From positions 672,001 to 736,000 of the forward strand of contig CAWFQB010000014.1 of assembly GCA_963817895.1 (NCBI GenBank): DNA of 64,000 bases, read 5' to 3'. The notes beneath the pieces were generated by a model that searched no databases, had not been told where the DNA came from, and saw nothing but the letters and a program-made list of their open reading frames with translations. Shown here piece by piece: positions 5,797 through 62,604 of this stretch. Made by a program: the position numbers and the translations under genes. The stretch is from an uncultured Chthonomonadaceae bacterium. Its GTDB lineage: Bacteria > Armatimonadota > Chthonomonadetes > Chthonomonadales > Chthonomonadaceae. The number at the start of each line of letters is the position of its first letter. Position 1 is the stretch's first letter.

Positions 5797-6435
5797 TCAT
5801 CGTTCTTTGCTTGCCGCGACCATTTCGAGGAAGTAGGCATGAACTTGCGGGTCGTCGGTCAGTTCGGGATGGAAGGCGGTGGCGAGAATATTGCCTTGCC
5901 GCGCGGCCACGATTTTGTCGCGGAAATGGCCTAAAATCTGCACATCCGGCGACGCTTCCACGATGTAGGGGGCGCGAATGAACACTCCGCGCACACTATT
6001 TTGGTTCTCGTTCGCGTCTGGTGCAGTGGAAACGTTATTTAGCGAGGTGAACGGAACGTCGGCCTCGAAGCTGTCAATCTGGCGTCCGAAGGCGTTGCGG
6101 GCGACGGTCACGTTCAGCGCGGCAAGGGTGGGCTGTTCCGGCCTGTCCTGAATGGTTTTCGCCAGCAGAATCATGCCGGCGCAGGTTCCATAAGCGGGCA
6201 TTCCCTTTTCGAGACGCGCTTGAATGGCGGTGTCAAGGCCGATACGCTGCATCAGTTTACCGATAGTCGTGCTTTCGCCGCCGGGCAAAACAAGCGCGTC
6301 GACTGCCTGCAAATCCTCTAAAGCGCGAACAAACCGGGTTGTTGCCCCAAGCTGTTCTTCAAGCATTTTGCGGTGCGCGTCATAATCGCCCTGAAGCGCT
6401 AGGATACCGATAATTTTGTTGTTACTTTCGTTCAT
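5797..6435 (-). CDS. pdxT: Pyridoxal 5'-phosphate synthase glutaminase subunit
   Basis: GILALQG, LPGGESTT, GTCAG, RNAFGRQ, FIRAP, FHPEL motifs. Confidence 0.95.
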   Translation of the reverse strand: MNESNNKIIGILALQGDYDAHRKMLEEQLGATTRFVRALEDLQAVDALVLPGGESTTIGKLMQRIGLDTAIQARLEKGMPAYGTCAGMILLAKTIQDRPEQPTLAALNVTVARNAFGRQIDSFEADVPFTSLNNVSTAPDANENQNSVRGVFIRAPYIVEASPDVQILGHFRDKIVAARQGNILATAFHPELTDDPQVHAYFLEMVAASKER

Positions 6436-6436
6436 A

Positions 6437-6823
6437 TCATAAAATCACATTTGGATTGTCAGGTTCGATGTTTCGCGATACCAGTTCAACACGATGCCCC
6501 TTCGGGTCTTCCACAACCGCCCGCCTGCCCCATTCCGAGTTCGCAGGTTTCGTTACAATCTTGACTCCAGCCATTGTCAGTTTGCTTACAAGTCCGTCAA
6601 CATCCTCGACTTGAAACCCCAGTCGGATGGATGCAGTACTGTCTGCTTCCTTCCGGCGCGGATAAATTTCAAATACGCAGCCGTTCAGTTCGGCAGAATA
6701 GTGTTCGGGGCCGGAACCATGCCGATGTTTCGTAAACGTCAGGCCTAACTGTCGGTAGAATTGCGCCGTGTTTTCAGTATCGCCACAACGAATGACGAGC
6801 AGTTTAAGCGCAGGTTCAGCCAT
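6437..6823 (-). CDS. VOC/glyoxalase family protein
   Basis: FY..LGL, HRHGSGPEHY, LGFQV, WGRRAVVEDPKGHRVEL. Confidence 0.8.
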   Translation of the reverse strand: MAEPALKLLVIRCGDTENTAQFYRQLGLTFTKHRHGSGPEHYSAELNGCVFEIYPRRKEADSTASIRLGFQVEDVDGLVSKLTMAGVKIVTKPANSEWGRRAVVEDPKGHRVELVSRNIEPDNPNVIL

Positions 6824-7142
6824 CTTGCTTTTGTCCATAAAGTACATTGAGATTGAGCAGATGATGACCAAAAACAGTCTTTGCGGCATTATCTGTCACT
6901 ACAACCAGAAATTGCTCGGCCACGCCGTAAGATAACATAACATGCGTGTATTTCTCATCAGCGCTAATGTACACGTAGGAGATGTCAATGGAATCAAGCG
7001 TCGCTGGCAATGAATGTTGCCGAATACAGGACACCACGTAGTCTTTGATATTGATTGCGCCGTCTTCATCCTCTCCCTGCAAACACATGGGTGAGATGAA
7101 CGCGCTCTGAAACTCAACAGCGTCAAGTTCCCGAATATTCAT
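6816..7142 (-). CDS. Hypothetical protein (108 aa)
   Basis: ORF with SD-like sequence whose stop overlaps the VOC gene start; no recognisable motif. Confidence 0.6.
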   Translation of the reverse strand: MNIRELDAVEFQSAFISPMCLQGEDEDGAINIKDYVVSCIRQHSLPATLDSIDISYVYISADEKYTHVMLSYGVAEQFLVVVTDNAAKTVFGHHLLNLNVLYGQKQDG

Positions 7143-7188
7143 CGAAGCCGTTCCTTTTTCCTCGTTCGCGCAAAACTGCCTTTACAAG

Positions 7189-45383: not shown

Positions 45384-46865
45384 ATGCCAAAAATCGTAGG
45401 AATTGATCTCGGCACGACCAACTCGGTCATTGCTGTTATGGAGGGCGCGGAGCCGGTCGTGATTTCCCTTGCCGAAGGGACGCGGCTTTGCCCTTCTGTC
45501 GTCGGCTTCACCCGTACGGGGGAACGCTTGGTCGGGCCGCTTGCCAAACGGCAGGCATTGGCTGCGCCGGAACGCACTATTCGCAGCATCAAGCGTCACA
45601 TGGGTACGGATTACACGGTGGAAATTGACAATCGGCGCATTGACGCCGCAGGAGATTTCCGCCCTGATTTTGCAAAAACTAAAAGCGGACGCGGAAAGCT
45701 ATCTCGGCGAACCCGTTGAAAAGGCCGTGATTACGGTTCCCGCCTATTTTTCGGACGCGCAGCGGCAGGCCACCAAGGACGCGGGTACGATTGCCGGGCT
45801 GGACGTGGTTCGCATACTCAATGAGCCGACGGCTGCCGCGCTCGCATACGGAGCCAATCAAGAGGATGTGCAAAACGTTCTGGTGTGGGATTTGGGCGGC
45901 GGCACGTTCGACGTGTCCCTGCTGGAAGCGGGCGACGGCCTGTTCCATGTCCGCGCGACGAATGGCGATACCGAGTTAGGCGGCGACGATTGGGATTCGC
46001 GCCTGATGGAGTGGCTTGCCGATCAGTTCGCGAAGACGACAAGCCTCAATGTGCGCGGGGATCGCGCCGCCATGCAGCGATTGAAGGAAGCGGCGGAAAA
46101 AGCCAAAATTGAACTGAGCGCCCTGACGCAAACCAATATCAATCTGCCCTTTTTGTCGGTTGGCGCGGACGGCCCGCAGCATCTCGACATAGACCTTACG
46201 CGGGCGCAGATGGAAAAAATTTGCTCTGACCTGCTGGATCGCCTGATTGCGCCCTCCAAACAGGCGCTTGCCGACGCCAAAATGCAGGCCAGAGACATTG
46301 ACCGTATCCTGCTTGTCGGCGGTTCCACGCGAATGCCCGCCGTGCAGGAACTTGCGCGCCGAATGTTCGGTAAAGAACCCTACAAAGGCTTGAATCCCGA
46401 AGAGGCCATCGCGCTTGGCGCAGCCTTGCAGGGCGGCGTTCTGAATGAAGAGGTCACGGATTTACTGCTGCTGGACGTGACCCCGCTTTCGCTTGGCATC
46501 GAAACACTGGGCGGCGAAATCACGCACATCATCAGCCGCAACACTACCGTTCCCACGCAGAGCCGAAAAGTGTTTACAACCGCCAATGACGGGCAAACGA
46601 CGGTCGAGATCAAAGTGTATCAGGGCGAACACCGATTGGCGCGTTACAATAAGTTTCTCGCCAATTTTCAACTGACGGACATTCCCCGTTTGGGACGCGG
46701 CCTGCCCAAAATCGAAGTGGTCTTCGACATAGACGTGAACGGCATCGTCCACGTCACCGCCGTAGAACAAACTACGGGGCGACAGCAGCATATTCAGATC
46801 AACCATGCCATCGGCCTAGCGCGGAAGAGATCGCCCGGTTAAGTCAGGTCGTACAGCAGAAGTGA
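45384..46865 (+). CDS. dnaK: Hsp70 chaperone DnaK, C-terminally short; frameshifts near 45635 and 46820
   Basis: [59 protein letters not shown]; ends [14 protein letters not shown]. Confidence 0.9.
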
Positions 46866-46971
46866 GGTTTTAGGGTTCTAGGGTTTTAGGGTTACAGGGT
46901 GTTGCTGGTATCAAACTCTACTTCCCTTTCTGAAATCCAGATTCCTTAAAACCCTAGAACCCTAAAACCCT
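46866..46971. repeat. Hairpin of 8-nt tandem units (TTTTAGGG / CCCTAAAA) between dnaK and dnaJ
   Basis: ggttttagggttctagggttttagggtt versus aaaaccctagaaccctaaaaccct. Confidence 0.85.
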
Positions 46972-46988
46972 ACGTTTTGAGGAGCAAC

Positions 46989-48131
46989 ATGGCGACGGAA
47001 TCGCGTGACTATTACGAAGTGCTGGGAGTATCTCGCAGCGCCAGCCCGGAAGAGCTGAAGCGCGCCTACCGCAACCTTGCCAAAAAGTTCCACCCGGACA
47101 TCAACAAGGCCCCGGATGCGGCGGAAAAGTTCAAGGAGATACAGTCCGCATACGACGTGTTAAGCGACGAGGGCAAGCGCCGCCAGTTTGACCGCTTTGG
47201 CGTGGAGGGCTTGAACGGCGCGAGTGGCGGTGGCTTCGGCGGCGACTTTGGCGGCGGGGGCGCGGCTCCGTTCGGCGACATTTTTGATATTCTGTTCAAT
47301 CAGGCGGGGGGCGGGGCTACCAACCGTCCGGCGGAACCGGCGCGGGGCGACAACCTGCGCGAAGATCTGGAATTGTCGCTGGAAGAGGTGGCGACCGGCG
47401 TTGAAAAAACCATCAAGTACGCCCGCATGGAAACCTGCGAAACCTGTCACGGCGAGGGAGCGAAACCCGGAACCACGACGGAAACCTGCCCGCAGTGTCA
47501 CGGTCAGGGCCAGATACGCTTTTCGCAAAACACCCTGCTCGGCACGTTTCATACCAGCCAGCCGTGCAACAAATGCCGGGGAACGGGCAAAGTGATCCCC
47601 TCCCCCTGCCAGACGTGCAGCGGGGCCGGACGGGTCCGCAAAACAACGGAACGGACGCTGAAAATACCCGCAGGTATCGAATCGGGCAAGCATCTGCGCG
47701 TTGTGGGCATGGGCGATGTGGGCGAACGCGACGGACGCGCGGGCGATCTGTACGTGGTCATTTATGTGCGCGATCATGAGGTTTTCGAGCGGCAGGGTAA
47801 CGATATTTACTGCGAAATCAAGATTTCCATCGCGCGCGCCGCATTGGGCGGCCCTATCGAAATCCCTGTTCTCGGCGGCAAAGATGAATTGAAGCTGAAT
47901 GAGGGTACACAGCCCGCGCAGGTGTATACCCTGCGCGGCAAGGGGCTGCCCGATATGAACGGCAGGGGCAAGGGCGACCAACACATCGTCGTCAAGGTGG
48001 AAGTGCCAACCCGTCTTACCGGCGAACAGCGCGAACTCCTGCGCCAGTTCGCCGCCACAACCGGCGAAAAACTAAACGAACATAAACACGACGGCCCGAA
48101 CATACTGGGCCGTATTTTAGGAAAACATTAA
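46989..48131 (+). CDS. dnaJ: Chaperone DnaJ
   Basis: [13 protein letters not shown] region, four CxxCxGxG repeats. Confidence 0.97.
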
Positions 48132-51953: not shown

Positions 51954-52784
51954 ATGTCACTCTTGAAACCGCTCGACGGCAGTAAGAAGGTTCAGCTTTC
52001 CAAAATTGACCCGTCCGATACGGGCAAGATGAATCATGACGACGCAAGGAAGCAGGAGGACGATCTGAAGACGGAGTTGGCAGAACTGCAAACGCTGCTG
52101 TACGCCGCGCAGCAAACGCCCCTGCTGATTGTGCTACAGGGCATGGATACGGCGGGTAAAGATGGCGCGATTCGCGGATTGTCCGGCGCGATGAATCCGC
52201 AAAGCTGCCGGGTCGCCACCTTCAAAGTGCCGACGCCTGCCGAGGCCTCTCACGATTTTCTCTGGCGCGTCCATGCCGAAACACCCGGCAAAGGCAACGT
52301 CACTATTTTCAACCGTTCGCACTATGAGGATGTGCTGGTCGTTCGCGTCCACAATCTGATTCCCAAAGCGGATTGGGAAAAGCGGTACGACCATATCAAC
52401 AACTTCGAGCGCCTGCTGACGGATTCGGGTACGATTGTGCGTAAATTCTTCCTGCACATCAGCAAGGACGAGCAGGAACAGCGGCTCCTGGCGCGGGAAC
52501 AGGACCCCACAAAATCGTGGAAGTTGTCGCCACAGGACTGGAAAGAGCGAGAACTGTGGGACGACTATCAGACCGCCTATGAGGACGCGCTCAACCGCTG
52601 CGCCACGCCCGACGCGCCCTGGTATATTGTTCCCGCCGACCACAAATGGTTCCGCGACATCGCCATTGCTCAAACGCTGGTAGATACGCTCAAGCCCCTG
52701 CGCAACGATTGGATGCAACTGCTGAAATCGAGAGGCGCGGAAGAACTGAAACAACTCCGCGCCATGCGCCAGCAGCACTCATAG
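51954..52784 (+). CDS. ppk2: Polyphosphate kinase 2 family protein (class III-like)
   Basis: QGMDTAGKDG, FKVP..E..HDFLWR, FNRSHYEDVL, KFFLHISK, W..VPAD.KW. Confidence 0.92.
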   Translation: MSLLKPLDGSKKVQLSKIDPSDTGKMNHDDARKQEDDLKTELAELQTLLYAAQQTPLLIVLQGMDTAGKDGAIRGLSGAMNPQSCRVATFKVPTPAEASHDFLWRVHAETPGKGNVTIFNRSHYEDVLVVRVHNLIPKADWEKRYDHINNFERLLTDSGTIVRKFFLHISKDEQEQRLLAREQDPTKSWKLSPQDWKERELWDDYQTAYEDALNRCATPDAPWYIVPADHKWFRDIAIAQTLVDTLKPLRNDWMQLLKSRGAEELKQLRAMRQQHS

Positions 52785-53231
52785 GCTGTCCTGTAACAAC
52801 TGTATCGTTTGCAGCGCGTCGGGGCGGGGAACCTGACGGATTTCAAAGCCGTCCGCAAAATAGATCGCGCGGCTGTCATGCAGATGGAAGTTTGCCCACT
52901 GCGCGGCGGACAGGCCGAAATGATCCTGTATGTGGACGTTCGCGCCATGCGCCAACAAGAGGCGAACCACATTCGGGCGCGCGTTTCGGGCCGCCGCCAT
53001 CAGGGGCGTATCGCCGAACCGATCCTGCGCGTTGATGTTCGCGCCCCTGCCAAGCCAGTACGCCGCTTCCTGCGCCTGCCCCTCGTCGGCAGCCTGCGCC
53101 AAACGCGCGCTCACATAGGCCACGCAGCAGGCGCGTTCAACCGTCTGCCCCGCAAAACCTCCTGCCGCAAACGCGAACATCGCCAGAGCGGTTCGCAGCG
53201 GCAGCGACATTTTAATGCCAATTGTTACCAT
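52779..53231 (-). CDS. Exported ankyrin-repeat protein
   Basis: GANINAQDRFGDTPLMAAA, LLLAHGANV. Confidence 0.8.
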   Translation of the reverse strand: MVTIGIKMSLPLRTALAMFAFAAGGFAGQTVERACCVAYVSARLAQAADEGQAQEAAYWLGRGANINAQDRFGDTPLMAAARNARPNVVRLLLAHGANVHIQDHFGLSAAQWANFHLHDSRAIYFADGFEIRQVPRPDALQTIQLLQDSL

Positions 53232-53316
53232 AGCGCTTTGTTCTCCATAAAGGGGTATTGCTCATGCCCGAACAGGCGCATTTCGGAGACGCGCCTGGGA
53301 TACTGGCGAAAAGTAG

Positions 53317-54135
53317 TCAGCGCCCCATGTAGGGACTATCATCCCATAACGCCAATTGACTTGATGTACCCGGCAGGCTCACATTGCCTTGTTTGTCTAA
53401 CTTATGCTGGTCTGCTATCGCTCCGAACCATTTGCACAGGAGGTCTGCATCCATAACAACACGCCCATAGTGATTCCGCTGAACGCTTAACAATTCTTCA
53501 ATCTCAATGTTACGCCGGTGGTGCAGAATGTACCGGGTGAGCAACGGCCCCATCGTAAAATTAAGGCGTGATGTTGTTAGCAAAGAGCGAACAATGCACA
53601 AAGCGGGGTAAGGATTCGCCTCCAAGTTGATTTCGACAGTCTGATTGAGAAAAGCCTCGAAGAAACCATGAGAGTAGATTGTTCGCTTCCGTTTTTTACC
53701 GCCCAGTTCAACGGCAATGGCTTCGACATTCAAAAAGGTGGTTTGGGGCAGGTCAGCAAAATCAGCATGTCGAACATGGCTTTCTCGGAAAGCCCAGGTA
53801 TCGTTCAGCGTCCACATGTCGAATAGCCAACCTTGATGTTCCATGTGCAAACCGCCAAACCGCGTATCTCGTATGAAGTGCCTTTTCATAGTTTTGCGCA
53901 TGTCGCAAGTGGAAACACCGCCAATGACTACATCCACATCGCGCACTTGCGCTTTCAAACCATTACTCAGCAGATCACGCGCGACGCCGCCGAATATATA
54001 TGCCGACCATTGATTTTCGTAGATGTGACCAAGCACAGACTGCATCGGCTTACGCCTGCGCGTCTCTTTAGTCAGAAAGTCACTGATTCTATGGCGGAGA
54101 ATTTGCTCCTGTTGTTCAATCTTTGCGTCAGCCAT
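53317..54135 (-). CDS. Divergent class II nucleotidyltransferase (CCA/poly(A) polymerase head-like)
   Basis: YIFGGVARD...VRDVDVV (GGxxRD/DxD), FG motif, FDMW putative third Asp, DLPQTTFLNVEAIA in place of DLxRRDFTINA. Confidence 0.7.
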   Translation of the reverse strand: MADAKIEQQEQILRHRISDFLTKETRRRKPMQSVLGHIYENQWSAYIFGGVARDLLSNGLKAQVRDVDVVIGGVSTCDMRKTMKRHFIRDTRFGGLHMEHQGWLFDMWTLNDTWAFRESHVRHADFADLPQTTFLNVEAIAVELGGKKRKRTIYSHGFFEAFLNQTVEINLEANPYPALCIVRSLLTTSRLNFTMGPLLTRYILHHRRNIEIEELLSVQRNHYGRVVMDADLLCKWFGAIADQHKLDKQGNVSLPGTSSQLALWDDSPYMGR

Positions 54136-55498
54136 TTTTTAGTTGTTTGTGCAATGTACAGGCGAATGTATCCGTCATGCCGCAAACATAATCGGTGAGC
54201 AGCTGCCGTTGACAGTAGATTTTGGGCAGCCCCTCTTTAAGCGCCTCATTGTAAACTTTACGGTAGTTGTTAGACATCATATTGTGAATTTTGCCGGGAA
54301 ATGTTTTCACGCCCCGCCCACCTTCAGCATCTGACGCTCCCTCCCAGAAAATGTCCATCAAATCGTGTATAACCTCCCTGCCCATCACTTCAAGCCGAAG
54401 CGTTTCCTTAGATGTATATACATGCTTCTTCGCAAATTCCTTACAAGCCTCGACAAAGCGAGCGGCCTCACAGTAAGGATCACTAATGAGTTCTTTATGA
54501 TACTCGCCACGCATGATCGTCTCGTAGTAATGCTTGAACGCTTCAATAACGGCAACAACCATCGCGCCTATGCCATTGACGCGGAAATACTGAACGTTTA
54601 CTTCATCATCATTTCCCTTATCCGAAGCAGCCAAACATTTATTTATCATAGGACAGTTATATTGCTTCAATTCCTCTTTGATTGTATTCCAACGTACCAC
54701 ACCTTTCTTGACAGCATCCTCTATATCTACGACAGAGTAGACAATATCATCGCTTGCTTCAACGAGGTAAGTAATCGGGTTACGCGCTTCGCCAGTTCCG
54801 GTTGCGGCACGAATCTCTTCAATTACCCTGTTTTCCGAGGCAAAGTAGCCCGGCTTTTTCTTTTCCTGCTCGGCTGTGATTTTATCCGAAGCGGCAATAT
54901 ACTTGCACACAGCAGAGAGTGTGCCATACGTAAGGTTCAGGCCGAAATAATCCTCCAGAATTTGCAGACGAGCAATTAGGCGCAACGTTTGCGCGTTGCC
55001 TTCAAAATTCCAGAAATCGTTCGCAAGCTGTTCTGAACGATATGTTGCTACAGACGCATTGAATGAGTGTGCAAAATCTCGAACAGGATCAAGACTGAGC
55101 GGATACAATTTATGGAACCAACTGCTAATTGCCTGTTCGCCAGCGTGACCAAAAGGCGGGTTGCCAAGATCATGAAGTAAGCCGCAAGTAGCGGCAATAA
55201 TTGGAATTTCTTTCGCCTGTGATAAAGGTAAACCCTCTTTCTGCATAATCCACTCTGCCGCTTTACCTGACAAATCGCGGGCGACAGTGGACACTTCAAG
55301 CGAATGGGTAAGACGAGTTCTCACGGCATCGTGTGGCTCCAAAGGAAACACCTGCGCTTTGTCTTGTAAGCGACGTACAGGCGTGGAGAAAACAGAACGA
55401 TCATAGTCTCGCTCGAACTCAGACCTGAATTCTCCACTTCGCTTTTGTGTTCCGCGTCGGCGTTCGCTATTTAGAAGTTGGTTCCACTGCATTCTCAT
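54128..55498 (-). CDS. dgt: dGTP triphosphohydrolase (HD family)
   Basis: RLQDKAQV, RTRLTHSLEV, HDLGNPPFGHAGE, FEGNAQ, KY, EASDDIVYSVVDIED, DYVCGMTD. Confidence 0.93.
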   Translation of the reverse strand: MRMQWNQLLNSERRRGTQKRSGEFRSEFERDYDRSVFSTPVRRLQDKAQVFPLEPHDAVRTRLTHSLEVSTVARDLSGKAAEWIMQKEGLPLSQAKEIPIIAATCGLLHDLGNPPFGHAGEQAISSWFHKLYPLSLDPVRDFAHSFNASVATYRSEQLANDFWNFEGNAQTLRLIARLQILEDYFGLNLTYGTLSAVCKYIAASDKITAEQEKKKPGYFASENRVIEEIRAATGTGEARNPITYLVEASDDIVYSVVDIEDAVKKGVVRWNTIKEELKQYNCPMINKCLAASDKGNDDEVNVQYFRVNGIGAMVVAVIEAFKHYYETIMRGEYHKELISDPYCEAARFVEACKEFAKKHVYTSKETLRLEVMGREVIHDLMDIFWEGASDAEGGRGVKTFPGKIHNMMSNNYRKVYNEALKEGLPKIYCQRQLLTDYVCGMTDTFACTLHKQLKNG

Positions 55499-55594
55499 TG
55501 GCTATTCTCCATCCACAAAGTTACCAAAGCATTATACTTCATTCAGGATACAAGAATGGTTAATTTACTACGCCTTGCTTTACGCCCATAAGCA

Positions 55595-56422
55595 CTAACT
55601 GCCGGTCGAGCGATAGTGGCGGACGCCGAAGTTCCAGAGGCGGAAGGAGAGCAACAGGAACAGGACGCCGACAAATGGGGACAGCCACGCGATTACAATG
55701 GCAGATGAATCCGGTTTCATGCCCGCATGATGCAGCAGGACTCGCGACGGCAGGTAGTTGATGCAGGCGAGGGGAATGACGTACGTAAAGAATTTCTGCA
55801 TCCATTGCGGATAGATTTCGAGGGGGTACTGCGCGGTTTCCGTGCCGCCATACGTGACCGTGTTCATGATTTCCAGACCCTCTACCGTCCAAAACGAAAG
55901 GGTTGCCTGTAGTACCTGTAGCCCGTAAAACAGACACGTTCCCCCCACAATGGAGAGCGCGATGAGCAGCAGGCTTGCAGACGTTTGCGCGGAAGGCAAT
56001 TGCATGATGGCCCACGTCAGCACAACCGACGCCTGCAACAATCGCCCGAACCGCATCAACTGCAACTCCTGCGCGGCTACCTGAAAAGCCGTGCTGCGCG
56101 GACGCAACAGCAGCCGGTCGAAATCTCCCGCCTTGACCACATTGCCGAACGTATCAAACCCCCGCCCTGCCGCTTCCGCGATGGCAAAGGCGATGCCAAC
56201 CATGCCATAGAACAGCGCGATTTCCGACAACTGCCAGCCCCGCAGACTGCCGAAGCGGGCAAACAGCGCCCATATTCCCACAAATTCAATGAGGGTCGCA
56301 AACAGGTTCCCGAACGCCAGCATCAGGAAGGAAGCGCGGTACTGCAATTGTCCGCGTATCGAAATCGCCGCATATCGCCAGTACAGTCGCCATGTATCTT
56401 GCAGGGATTTTTGAATAACCAT
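55595..56422 (-). CDS. ABC-2 family permease
   Basis: QYRASF, GDFDRLLLRP, QYPLEIY, G.RHY.STGS. Confidence 0.85.
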   Translation of the reverse strand: MVIQKSLQDTWRLYWRYAAISIRGQLQYRASFLMLAFGNLFATLIEFVGIWALFARFGSLRGWQLSEIALFYGMVGIAFAIAEAAGRGFDTFGNVVKAGDFDRLLLRPRSTAFQVAAQELQLMRFGRLLQASVVLTWAIMQLPSAQTSASLLLIALSIVGGTCLFYGLQVLQATLSFWTVEGLEIMNTVTYGGTETAQYPLEIYPQWMQKFFTYVIPLACINYLPSRVLLHHAGMKPDSSAIVIAWLSPFVGVLFLLLSFRLWNFGVRHYRSTGS

Positions 56423-56426
56423 AATT

Positions 56427-57230
56427 TTACCCTCCCTGAACAACGAGGCGGCGCGTGGCGTTGCGCAGCAGCAGGCGGCCAAGCATGACGAGTATCAGCG
56501 TCCACAAGGTTTGATGCAACAGCGTAGCGGGCAATTGCGCTATGGGAATGTTACCCGTATACAGGCGGAACGGCGTGTCCATCATGGCGCGGAACGGCAG
56601 AAAGTTGACGACGGGCTGCGCCCATGCGGGCATTAGCGGCACAGGGATGAGCAGGCCGGAAAACGTGTACATGACCGTCGGCGCGAGGCGCGTGATGCCG
56701 TCACCCGCAAGCGTGTACAGCAGCGTAATCGTCAGCAGGGTGGAAAACGCGGCGGCAAGGGCAAACGCTCCACAGGTTGCCGCTATCCACGCGACAAAAG
56801 CCGCAAACGTCGGCGGCAGGCGCAGGCCGAAAAACAGACCGGCAACCACAAACATCGGAATGGCGCGAAGCAGGGTTGGCGCGACGCGGGCGGCAAGGGC
56901 GCGGCTGTACCACAGGCCGTATAAATCCAGTGGACGCAGCATCTCATACGCCACGGTTCCCGTCCGTATCATGCTCCGAACATCGGTATCCACGTTCCAC
57001 ATGGCAAGCGCGAACATCGCCTGCGCCAGCCATAAATAACTCACCATATCTTCAAGCGCAATCGGTTGAGGCCGCGTGGTGGACTTGTAGAACGCGGTAA
57101 AGATGGCGACGCGCAGCAGGCCCCAGAACAACTGCGTTCCAAAGCCCGCAATCGCCGCCGCGCGATATTGCAGCAGGGCGCGAAACCGGGCGGCGGCAAC
57201 GGATATGTAGGGGCGCAGGGCGGCAGACAT
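56427..57230 (-). CDS. ABC-2 family permease
   Basis: LQYRAA, IRTG.VAYE.LRP, SGLLIP, LVVQGG. Confidence 0.85.
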   Translation of the reverse strand: MSAALRPYISVAAARFRALLQYRAAAIAGFGTQLFWGLLRVAIFTAFYKSTTRPQPIALEDMVSYLWLAQAMFALAMWNVDTDVRSMIRTGTVAYEMLRPLDLYGLWYSRALAARVAPTLLRAIPMFVVAGLFFGLRLPPTFAAFVAWIAATCGAFALAAAFSTLLTITLLYTLAGDGITRLAPTVMYTFSGLLIPVPLMPAWAQPVVNFLPFRAMMDTPFRLYTGNIPIAQLPATLLHQTLWTLILVMLGRLLLRNATRRLVVQGG

Positions 57231-60858: not shown

Positions 60859-62604
60859 ATGAACCGTTATCGGCGCTTTGCGCTTCCTATTCGATTGCTT
60901 GTTTCGTTTGGCTTGTGCGTTGTTCAGGGCGGCGCGTGTCCGGCGCAGACATTTTCGGCGGTCCAGCCTGTTCGGTCGGCGCATGGCATGGTGGCGTCGG
61001 CAAGCGGATTGGCGTCACAGGCGGGCGTGGAAATACTAAAACGGGGCGGAAATGCTGTGGATGCGGCCTGCGCAACCGCGTTCGCGCTTGCCGTGACGTA
61101 CCCGGTCGCGGGCAATCTGGGCGGCGGCGGGTTCATGCTGATACGGCTTGGCGGATGGCCGCGCGGTTGCCATTGATTACCGCGAAACGGCCCCGGCAGC
61201 GGCGACAAGCGGGATGTATCAGGACAAGGCGGGCAACATCATTCCCAATGCGTCGCTTGTCGGCTATCGGGCGTCGGGCGTACCCGGAACCGTTGCCGGG
61301 TTGGAACTGGCGCAGCGCAAGTACGGCAAACTGAAATGGCGGGAGGTGATTGAACCGGCGCGGCGTCTGGCGTCAGAAGGTTTTCCGGTCAGCGCGGCAA
61401 TGGCGTCCGGCCTGCGGGGTGAAAAATCTCTGGCGCAGTTTCCCGAAAGCCGCCGCGTTTTTCTGAAGCAGGGCGCATTTTACCAGAGCCGGGGAAACGT
61501 TCCGGCAGCCGGAACTGGCGGCGACACTGGCGCGTTTGCAGCAGATACGGCGCAAAAGACTTTTACGAGGGACACACGGCGGAACTCATCGCAAAGGCGA
61601 TGCAGCGCGAACGACGGCCTGATTACCCGCGAGGATTTACGACATTACAAAGCGGTCGAGCGCGAACCATTGCGGGGAACCTATCGGGGTTATGAGGTTC
61701 TCACCATGCCGCCGCCGAGTTCGGGCGGCATCGCCCTGCTGGAAATGCTCAACATTCTGGAACCCCATGATCTGGCGAAATGGGGGCATGACGCGCCCGA
61801 AACCAACCACCTGCTGATTGAAGCCATGCGCCGCGCGTTTGCGGACCGGGCGGAGTTTTTGGGCGACCCGGATTTTGTCCGCGTCCCCGCCAAAGCCCTG
61901 ATTGCCAAACCGTATGCGGCGGAAGTTGCCCGCAGCATTGATCGCCGAACACGCCACGCCGAGCGCAGAAATCAAGCACGGTCAGCCTGCCGGTTACGAG
62001 TCGCCGCAAACCACGCATTTTTCGGTTGTGGATGCGGAAGGCAATGCGGTTTCCAACACGTACACGCTCAACATGGCGTATGGCAGCGGCGTGACCGTAA
62101 AGGGCGCGGGCTTTCTGCTCAACGACGAAATGGACGATTTCACCAGCAAGCCGGGCGTTCCCAACGGCTTCGGCTTGATTCAGGGCGCGGCGAACGCGAT
62201 TGCGCCCACATAAGCGCCCTCTCTCCTCCATGACGCCCACCATTCTGGTCAAGAACGGCAAACTGTTTCTGGTAATCGGCAGTCCCGGCGGCCCGACGAT
62301 CATCAACACGGTGTTGCAGGTGATTGTCAACGTCGTGGACCACAACATGAACATCGCGCAGGCCATCGCCGCGCCCCGCCTGCACCACCAATGGCTGCCG
62401 GATCAAGTCCGAGTGGAAACCAACGGCCTGACGCCCGAAACCCGCCGCAAACTGGAACAAATGGGACACGTCTTCGCCAAACGCGCCGGACTGCCCAACG
62501 AGCATTGGGGCGACGCGGAAGGCATACTGGTTGATCCTCTCACCGGCAAGCGCTATGGCGCGTCCGACCCACGTTCCCGCGACGCGGCGGCCGTTGGTTA
62601 TTAA
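60859..62604 (+). CDS. ggt: Gamma-glutamyltransferase (several apparent frameshifts)
   Basis: [77 protein letters not shown]. Confidence 0.9.

Follow-up and report, generated by a model that had tools for sequence, protein, structure and literature searches.

A dGTPase and nucleotidyltransferase gene pair of an uncultured Chthonomonadaceae bacterium is very probably a divergent Clover anti-phage operon

Two overlapping genes in the genome of an uncultured Chthonomonadaceae bacterium, one encoding an HD-family dGTPase and the other a small nucleotidyltransferase (NTase), raise the question whether they form an anti-phage system and, if so, whether this system is a new one. The original prediction, made from the letters of the DNA, regarded the pair as an undescribed defence module. 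We analyzed the whole stretch of 64,000 nucleotides in which the pair lies (contig CAWFQB010000014.1), here called the window, together with related loci. The pair is very probably the Clover anti-phage operon, consisting of the dGTPase CloA and the NTase CloB, with a function of the Clover type in which the dGTPase is restrained by a nucleotide made by CloB. As Clover has already been published, the locus is a further, divergent copy of a known system, and the predicted novelty is thereby refuted; the assignment as an acquired dGTPase and NTase module stands, with phage defence as its most likely role. Statements on Clover are taken from its description by Yamaguchi et al. (10.1101/2025.07.09.663793; PMC12265719).

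The cassette and its tested relatives

The features of the cassette and its surroundings are as follows.

53317..54135, minus strand: putative cloB, a minimal nucleotidyltransferase of 272 aa with a class II (CCA/poly(A)-polymerase-like) predicted fold and predicted catalytic residues D66/D68/D106 (BLASTP, profile, AF2)
54128..55498, minus strand: putative cloA, an HD-family dGTPase effector of 456 aa with predicted dTTP and p3diT allosteric pockets (PDB matches, homology, pocket residues, tree)
54128..54135, minus strand: start/stop overlap of cloA and cloB, 8 nt, ATGGCTGA (sequence)
55507..55510, minus strand: GGAG, Shine-Dalgarno-like, 8 nt 5' of the cloA ATG (sequence)
55531..55536, minus strand: TATAAT hexamer without a matching -35, its promoter role unsupported (sequence; missed by the promoter scan)
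52779-53231: ankyrin gene, one flank of the cassette
55595-56482: ABC-2 permease gene, the other flank

The cassette has a GC content of 0.473 as compared with 0.568 (sd 0.029) on average in the genome, a value reached or undercut by only 0.95% of 14,903 genome windows matched in size, and the GC3 of its genes (0.46 and 0.53) is lower than that of six neighbours (0.65–0.72), in agreement with the earlier description of two AT-richer genes amid host-like ones. Both open reading frames and their overlap were also found as described, and the two genes may be translationally coupled through it. The TATAAT and GGAG motifs are indeed present upstream of cloA, but the promoter reading is not supported, since a promoter and terminator scan performed at chance level (2 promoter-like sites in 53000-55800 vs 2.9 expected) and did not call the TATAAT at 55531-55536. 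The translation of the NTase contains the motifs FGGVARD (residues 48–54), RDVD (65–68), FDMW (105–108), which carries the proposed third Asp, and DLPQTTFLNVEAIA (128–141), and the HD tail is absent from its 272 residues, all as predicted. Elsewhere in the window the ORFs at 45469-48131 (dnaK-like) and 61148-62233 (gamma-glutamyltransferase-like) appear split or truncated, possibly due to assembly frameshift errors.

The best four of the 17 PDB matches of the window dGTPase are 9P8S, 9P8T, 9P8U and 9P8V (E 4e-83 to 7e-81), which are structures of Salmonella CloA and comprise eight chains apiece; the remaining PDB dGTPases were matched at E 1e-50 or weaker, the stand-alone SpdGTPase 9P8W at E 9e-24. 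The preprint gives the CloA entries as '8P9S-8P9V' plus 9P8W (10.1101/2025.07.09.663793). We take '8P9S-8P9V' as a transposition of 9P8S-9P8V, because, by a count made by hand, the residues cited in the paper fit the chain of 9P8S when offset by 2.

The Clover systems that have been tested are those of Salmonella enterica SA20044414 and of E. coli H5 (Yamaguchi et al. 2025; reviewed in PMC13434031). In the H5 genome (NZ_CP010169.1) the window dGTPase matches 1123677-1125056 with E 1e-79, as against just 3e-48 for the housekeeping Dgt, and a profile of the window NTase matches the gene adjoining this CloA at E 8e-32. For this profile 72 window-NTase homologues were used, 71 of the 93 other hits being taken, mostly for near-full coverage. 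The resulting two-gene operon, 1122857-1125056, measures 2,200 bp, which is also the distance spanned by the coordinates in the paper, 82910-85109 (PMC12265719); these coordinates do not map to the RefSeq numbering and the operon was located by sequence search. Residues 71 and 73 of its NTase are both Asp, and D71A/D73A is the CloB mutant of the Clover study (10.1101/2025.07.09.663793). Because length and Asp residues agree with the paper, we infer that this operon is the experimentally tested E. coli Clover.

In pairwise comparisons the window dGTPase is 35% identical to H5 CloA (E 6e-94) and the window NTase 25% identical to H5 CloB (EcCloB) over 190 of 272 residues (E 4e-14, a single BLASTP comparison). 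CloB homologues were collected in the Clover paper by BLAST at E 0.005, about 650 of them being listed in its Supplementary Table 1 (PMC12265719), and the window NTase lies well within this threshold in both the pairwise and the profile comparison. Its residues D66/D68/D106 align to D71/D73/D113 of EcCloB, the active-site pattern [D/E]h[D/E]..h[D/E]h of CloB is present, and the gene order, dNTPase followed by accessory NTase, is that of Clover. The first bioinformatic report of such a pair, according to the Clover paper, is said to be that of Nicastro et al. 2023.

The AlphaFold2 model of the NTase (mean pLDDT 92.9) is nearest to class II CCA-adding enzymes and poly(A) polymerases (Foldseek E 3.5e-9; VIA Z 11.6–14.2, rmsd 3.8–4.5 Å over about 210 residues), whereas Z is at most 5.1 with CD-NTases (VIA), and the class II kinship suggested beforehand is thus supported by the predicted fold. 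It shares with the CCA-adding enzymes and PcnB the head and neck fold and the GGxxRD..DxD motif, but has only 272 residues, lacks the body and tail as well as the RRD motif and is coupled to a dGTPase; with scores of 17.3 for PF01743 (cutoff 23), 16.5 for PRK13299 (290) and 12 for pcnB (305.65) an assignment as such an enzyme was rejected. As modelled, a stripped, template-free polymerase head would suit an enzyme linking two nucleotides.

No family above cutoff was found for the NTase in Pfam, PADLOC (2023 library) or NCBIfam, which is no sign of novelty because EcCloB itself also has no Pfam match at E 0.01. A search for a solved CloB structure by sequence or fold returned none, an absence that excludes no family. 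The dGTPase is matched by the PADLOC dGTPase model at E 1e-73; the stand-alone anti-phage dGTPase family NF041026 was rejected for it (198.6 bits vs a cutoff of 400, NTase partner present). As the Pfam, NCBIfam and PADLOC versions searched contain no CloB model, such loci can be expected to go on surfacing as 'dGTPase + hypothetical protein'.

Allosteric pockets and the identity of the signal

If the window copy works like the Salmonella and E. coli systems, CloB would join two dTTP to the linear dinucleotide p3diT (pppTpT), which at the CloA dimer interface would hold the dGTPase inactive as long as the cell is uninfected. Infection with a phage under which the dNTP pool swells would cause dTTP to rise and to fill an adjacent, mutually exclusive pocket, thereby completing the active site, and the activated CloA would hydrolyse dGTP and starve phage DNA replication. 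CloA is described as inactive alone, switched on by dTTP only and hydrolysing dGTP only, with p3diT occupying the pocket adjacent to that of dTTP and raising the dTTP threshold (10.1101/2025.07.09.663793). According to the paper, Clover strongly protects from T5-like phages, CloB inactivation is toxic and its product inhibitory in both tested orthologues, p3diT was likewise the product of a distantly related CloB from Xanthomonas, and CloB-like genes occur with other effectors as well (Extended Data Fig. 1a; PMC12265719). By analogy, the window copy would be expressed, make p3diT, respond to dTTP, form octamers and confer protection.

For the residue test, the window protein and E. coli H5 CloA (EcCloA) were aligned with 39 NTase-linked partners and, as controls, 11 dGTPases that have no NTase next to them. 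Of the partners, 35 came from the 50 genome loci described below and 4 were plasmid copies, 15 loci being dropped because the gene was partial, interrupted or missing; the row of the host dgt is empty in this alignment and was left unscored. The CloA features named in the preprint are the HD motif, the metal ligands H69/D242 and a catalytic dyad, HE (10.1101/2025.07.09.663793). All seven catalytic residues are kept in the window protein (H65, H109, D110, H118, E121, D250 and D251), confirming that the first gene has the full set of HD dGTPase motifs.

Of the eight dTTP pocket positions scored (R47, D61, Q172, K256, S418, N420, T449 and Y452), seven are identical in the window protein, the exception being the conservative change of Y452 to F445. 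Ten of the 11 controls reach at most 5/8, but the dTTP pocket alone is not diagnostic because a stand-alone enzyme from Listeria also scores 7/8. The p3diT pocket (R29, R34, D37, R38, F41, N75, N181, Q311 and R314; T25 was omitted as it lies in an indel region) is identical at 8/9 positions, N75 being replaced by T71, and all 11 controls have at most 6/9. Elsewhere, the window protein carries the substitutions Q127A, N175E and, at an octamer contact, H263N; this stacking residue corresponds to N271, at a position that is variable among the partners. The Listeria monocytogenes enzyme (L070:2001-3398, plus strand) is encoded beside rpsL without an NTase, its p3diT pocket scores 4/9, and in the tree its place is near the CloA-like proteins of Bacillus; it is possibly a dTTP-activated housekeeping relative of CloA.

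The change at N75 bears on the nature of the signal, as this is the residue that reads the base of the second thymine of p3diT (10.1101/2025.07.09.663793). The pair might be Clover by descent and yet belong to a clade with a different or looser inhibitory dinucleotide, e.g. pppTpN with a second base other than T, and with an altered nucleotide-selecting region of CloB. The N75 position is T, S or A not only in the window but in each of the 35 genome partners of full length, 22 of the 39 partners have S, T, A or V in place of Q311, and the window NTase has TTFLNVEA and NPYP where EcCloB has TTLMSWDS and TPDV. However, the window CloA itself retains D37, Q311, R314 and F41 as well as all triphosphate and linkage contacts scored (R29, R34, R38 and N181), a Thr or Ser may still hydrogen-bond the base, and p3diT was also obtained from the distant Xanthomonas CloB (PMC12265719). 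We therefore consider it unlikely, though conceivable, that this clade, having lost the N75 thymine reader and often Q311 too and having a remodelled CloB selection motif, signals with a dinucleotide other than p3diT.

The pair had been suggested to work through an NTase that makes an activator for the dGTPase, modifies it or acts as a second effector, i.e. a toxin. NTases of the Pol-beta superfamily are indeed signal synthases or toxins in CBASS, AbiE and MenT, and CloB-like genes without a dGTPase were found in 2 of 49 informative loci. The published role is a different one, since CloB makes the inhibitor p3diT and the activator is dTTP; although CloB-like genes also stand beside other effectors (Extended Data Fig. 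1a), CloB loss is toxic and the product inhibitory in both tested orthologues (PMC12265719). The window CloA has kept the inhibitor pocket (8/9), and an activating, modifying or toxic NTase is very improbable here.

Descent, recurrence and genomic context

In a quick IQ-TREE analysis of 60 rows the window dGTPase forms a single clade with EcCloA, a Phaeobacter copy and 35 loci (SH-aLRT 95), while the CloA-like proteins of Bacillus and the Listeria enzyme lie outside this supported clade with no fixed placement. The host carries a separate housekeeping dgt of 373 aa (orthologue at C4:273782-274072), whose branch is distant from the window dGTPase and which groups with the copies of relatives. 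With the window dGTPase as query, only weak matches of the housekeeping type (E about 1e-14) were obtained in 38/40 relatives, and one more in the host. The window protein thus lies in the CloA clade, far from both the host dgt and the stand-alone defence dGTPase, and a vertically inherited housekeeping dgt was rejected.

Among 50%-identity representatives 1,183 relatives of the NTase were found at E ≤0.001. Species-representative genomes, when scanned, yielded 50 NTase loci; the search pattern favours the subclade of the window, and EcCloB would escape it. In 47/50 the NTase is preceded upstream by a CloA-like gene of the same strand (38–59% identity in matched segments), which is adjacent to the NTase in 46 and about 2.6 kb off in L031. 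The remaining three consist of L026 at a contig edge and of two solo NTases, L003 and L046. The co-occurrence that had been called for is therefore present. The pairs are spread over many phyla, the 8-nt in-frame overlap recurs in 38 of the 47, and their GC content is below that of the flanks in 34/36 scorable loci. On plasmids, a dGTPase is directly upstream in 8/8 NTase matches (6 from Bacillus and 2 from Phaeobacter, which are not independent), and a search of 50,697 phage records gave no homologue of the NTase.

A housekeeping dGTPase of the dNTP pool that happens to lie beside an unrelated tRNA/RNA nucleotidyltransferase is the least probable reading of all. In its favour, the NCBIfam model matched best is PRK01096 (380.9 bits, under its cutoff of 439), the flanking genes are ordinary and a close stand-alone relative lies by rpsL in Listeria. 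Against it, the host has its own dgt and the pair has a GC content under that of its flanks, and the recurrence of the pair across phyla largely refutes it.

The NTase was not found in 40/40 relatives. A phylum-wide profile search of 300 other genomes gave 2 strong full-length matches, which may duplicate members of the 50 loci and were added to no count, and 22 weak N-terminal ones in long ORFs, which are taken as CCA/poly(A)-type enzymes. In a genome of the same genus (G002) the cassette is absent, and the contig with the ABC cluster is not the one with the ppk2/ankyrin genes; there, an unrelated gene comes after the ABC permease, and the cassette junction is at the same time a break in synteny, so that it offers no clean empty site. 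A search for a target-site duplication or terminal repeat at the cassette gave nothing convincing. Low GC, recurrence, patchy distribution and absence from the 40 relatives agree with the proposal of a single horizontally acquired module.

The window copy is flanked by ordinary genes and lies outside any defence island. The E. coli H5 Clover lies in a selC integrase island, and one Bacillus copy in an island that also holds restriction genes and three-component ABC genes. Directly downstream of the pair, a type I restriction hsdR is encoded in three loci (L013:6877-9969, L019:6910-10065 and L023:6895-10050) and a TIR-domain protein in another (L001:6864-8261); these finds come from 16 selected downstream ORFs and do not measure enrichment.

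Several of the loci deviate from the common arrangement. The two solo CloB-like NTases (L003:1281-2084 and L046:3874-5007, plus strand), with no dGTPase upstream, fit the 'single NTase' class of the paper. In L030, L031, L047 and L050 the CloA-like gene is in at least two segments, likely due to frameshifts, with the NTase present. L049 encodes a CloB-like protein of 405 aa (5962-7179, plus strand) 3' of a CloA-like gene, in which about 130 aa are inserted between GGxxRD and DxD and match Pfam HD (E 1.3e-8, residues 75–169); a fusion of synthase and phosphohydrolase, a fragment or an artefact of the assembly may account for this protein.

Relation to known systems

The window pair resembles Clover in gene order, overlap and size (456/272 aa vs 471/276 aa), in the homology of both proteins, in the HD motif and HE dyad, the DxD..D triad, the dTTP (7/8) and p3diT (8/9) pockets and in falling into one tree clade. 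It differs from it by identities of only 35% and 25%, by the substitutions N75T, Y452F, Q127A, N175E and H263N, by the lack of a defence island, and by close relatives that are mostly Planctomycetota, Acidobacteriota, Myxococcota, Verrucomicrobiota and Armatimonadota.

As system and mechanism are already published, the locus reveals no new kind of biology and is of modest value. With it, Clover extends to a divergent clade, and the named members of this clade are mostly from phyla beyond the classes named by the preprint, which are Gamma- and Alphaproteobacteria, Bacilli, Clostridia, Myxococcia, Flavobacteriia and 'other' (10.1101/2025.07.09.663793). The clade-wide changes in the inhibitor pocket point to a possibly different signal; a signal other than p3diT would, if true, add a further nucleotide to the inhibitory ones of immunity, a new one, and be the first diversification of the signal within Clover. 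No published test of this clade was found in the literature searched, whose coverage mostly leaves out subscription journals.

Stand-alone anti-phage dGTPases were reportedly described by Tal et al. 2022. Like the window dGTPase, these enzymes (SpdGTPase 9P8W, NF041026, PADLOC dGTPase) belong to the HD dGTPase family and deplete dGTP, but they are far off in the tree, active without a cue and have no NTase partner (PMC12265719). Hailong and Panoptes are likened to Clover in the paper's description, as a constitutively made nucleotide restrains an effector in each of them (PMC12265719), whereas their signals and effectors set them apart. On a Geminocystis plasmid (L071:1-3326) a stand-alone dGTPase gene is divergent from a gene annotated as an anti-phage dCTP deaminase.
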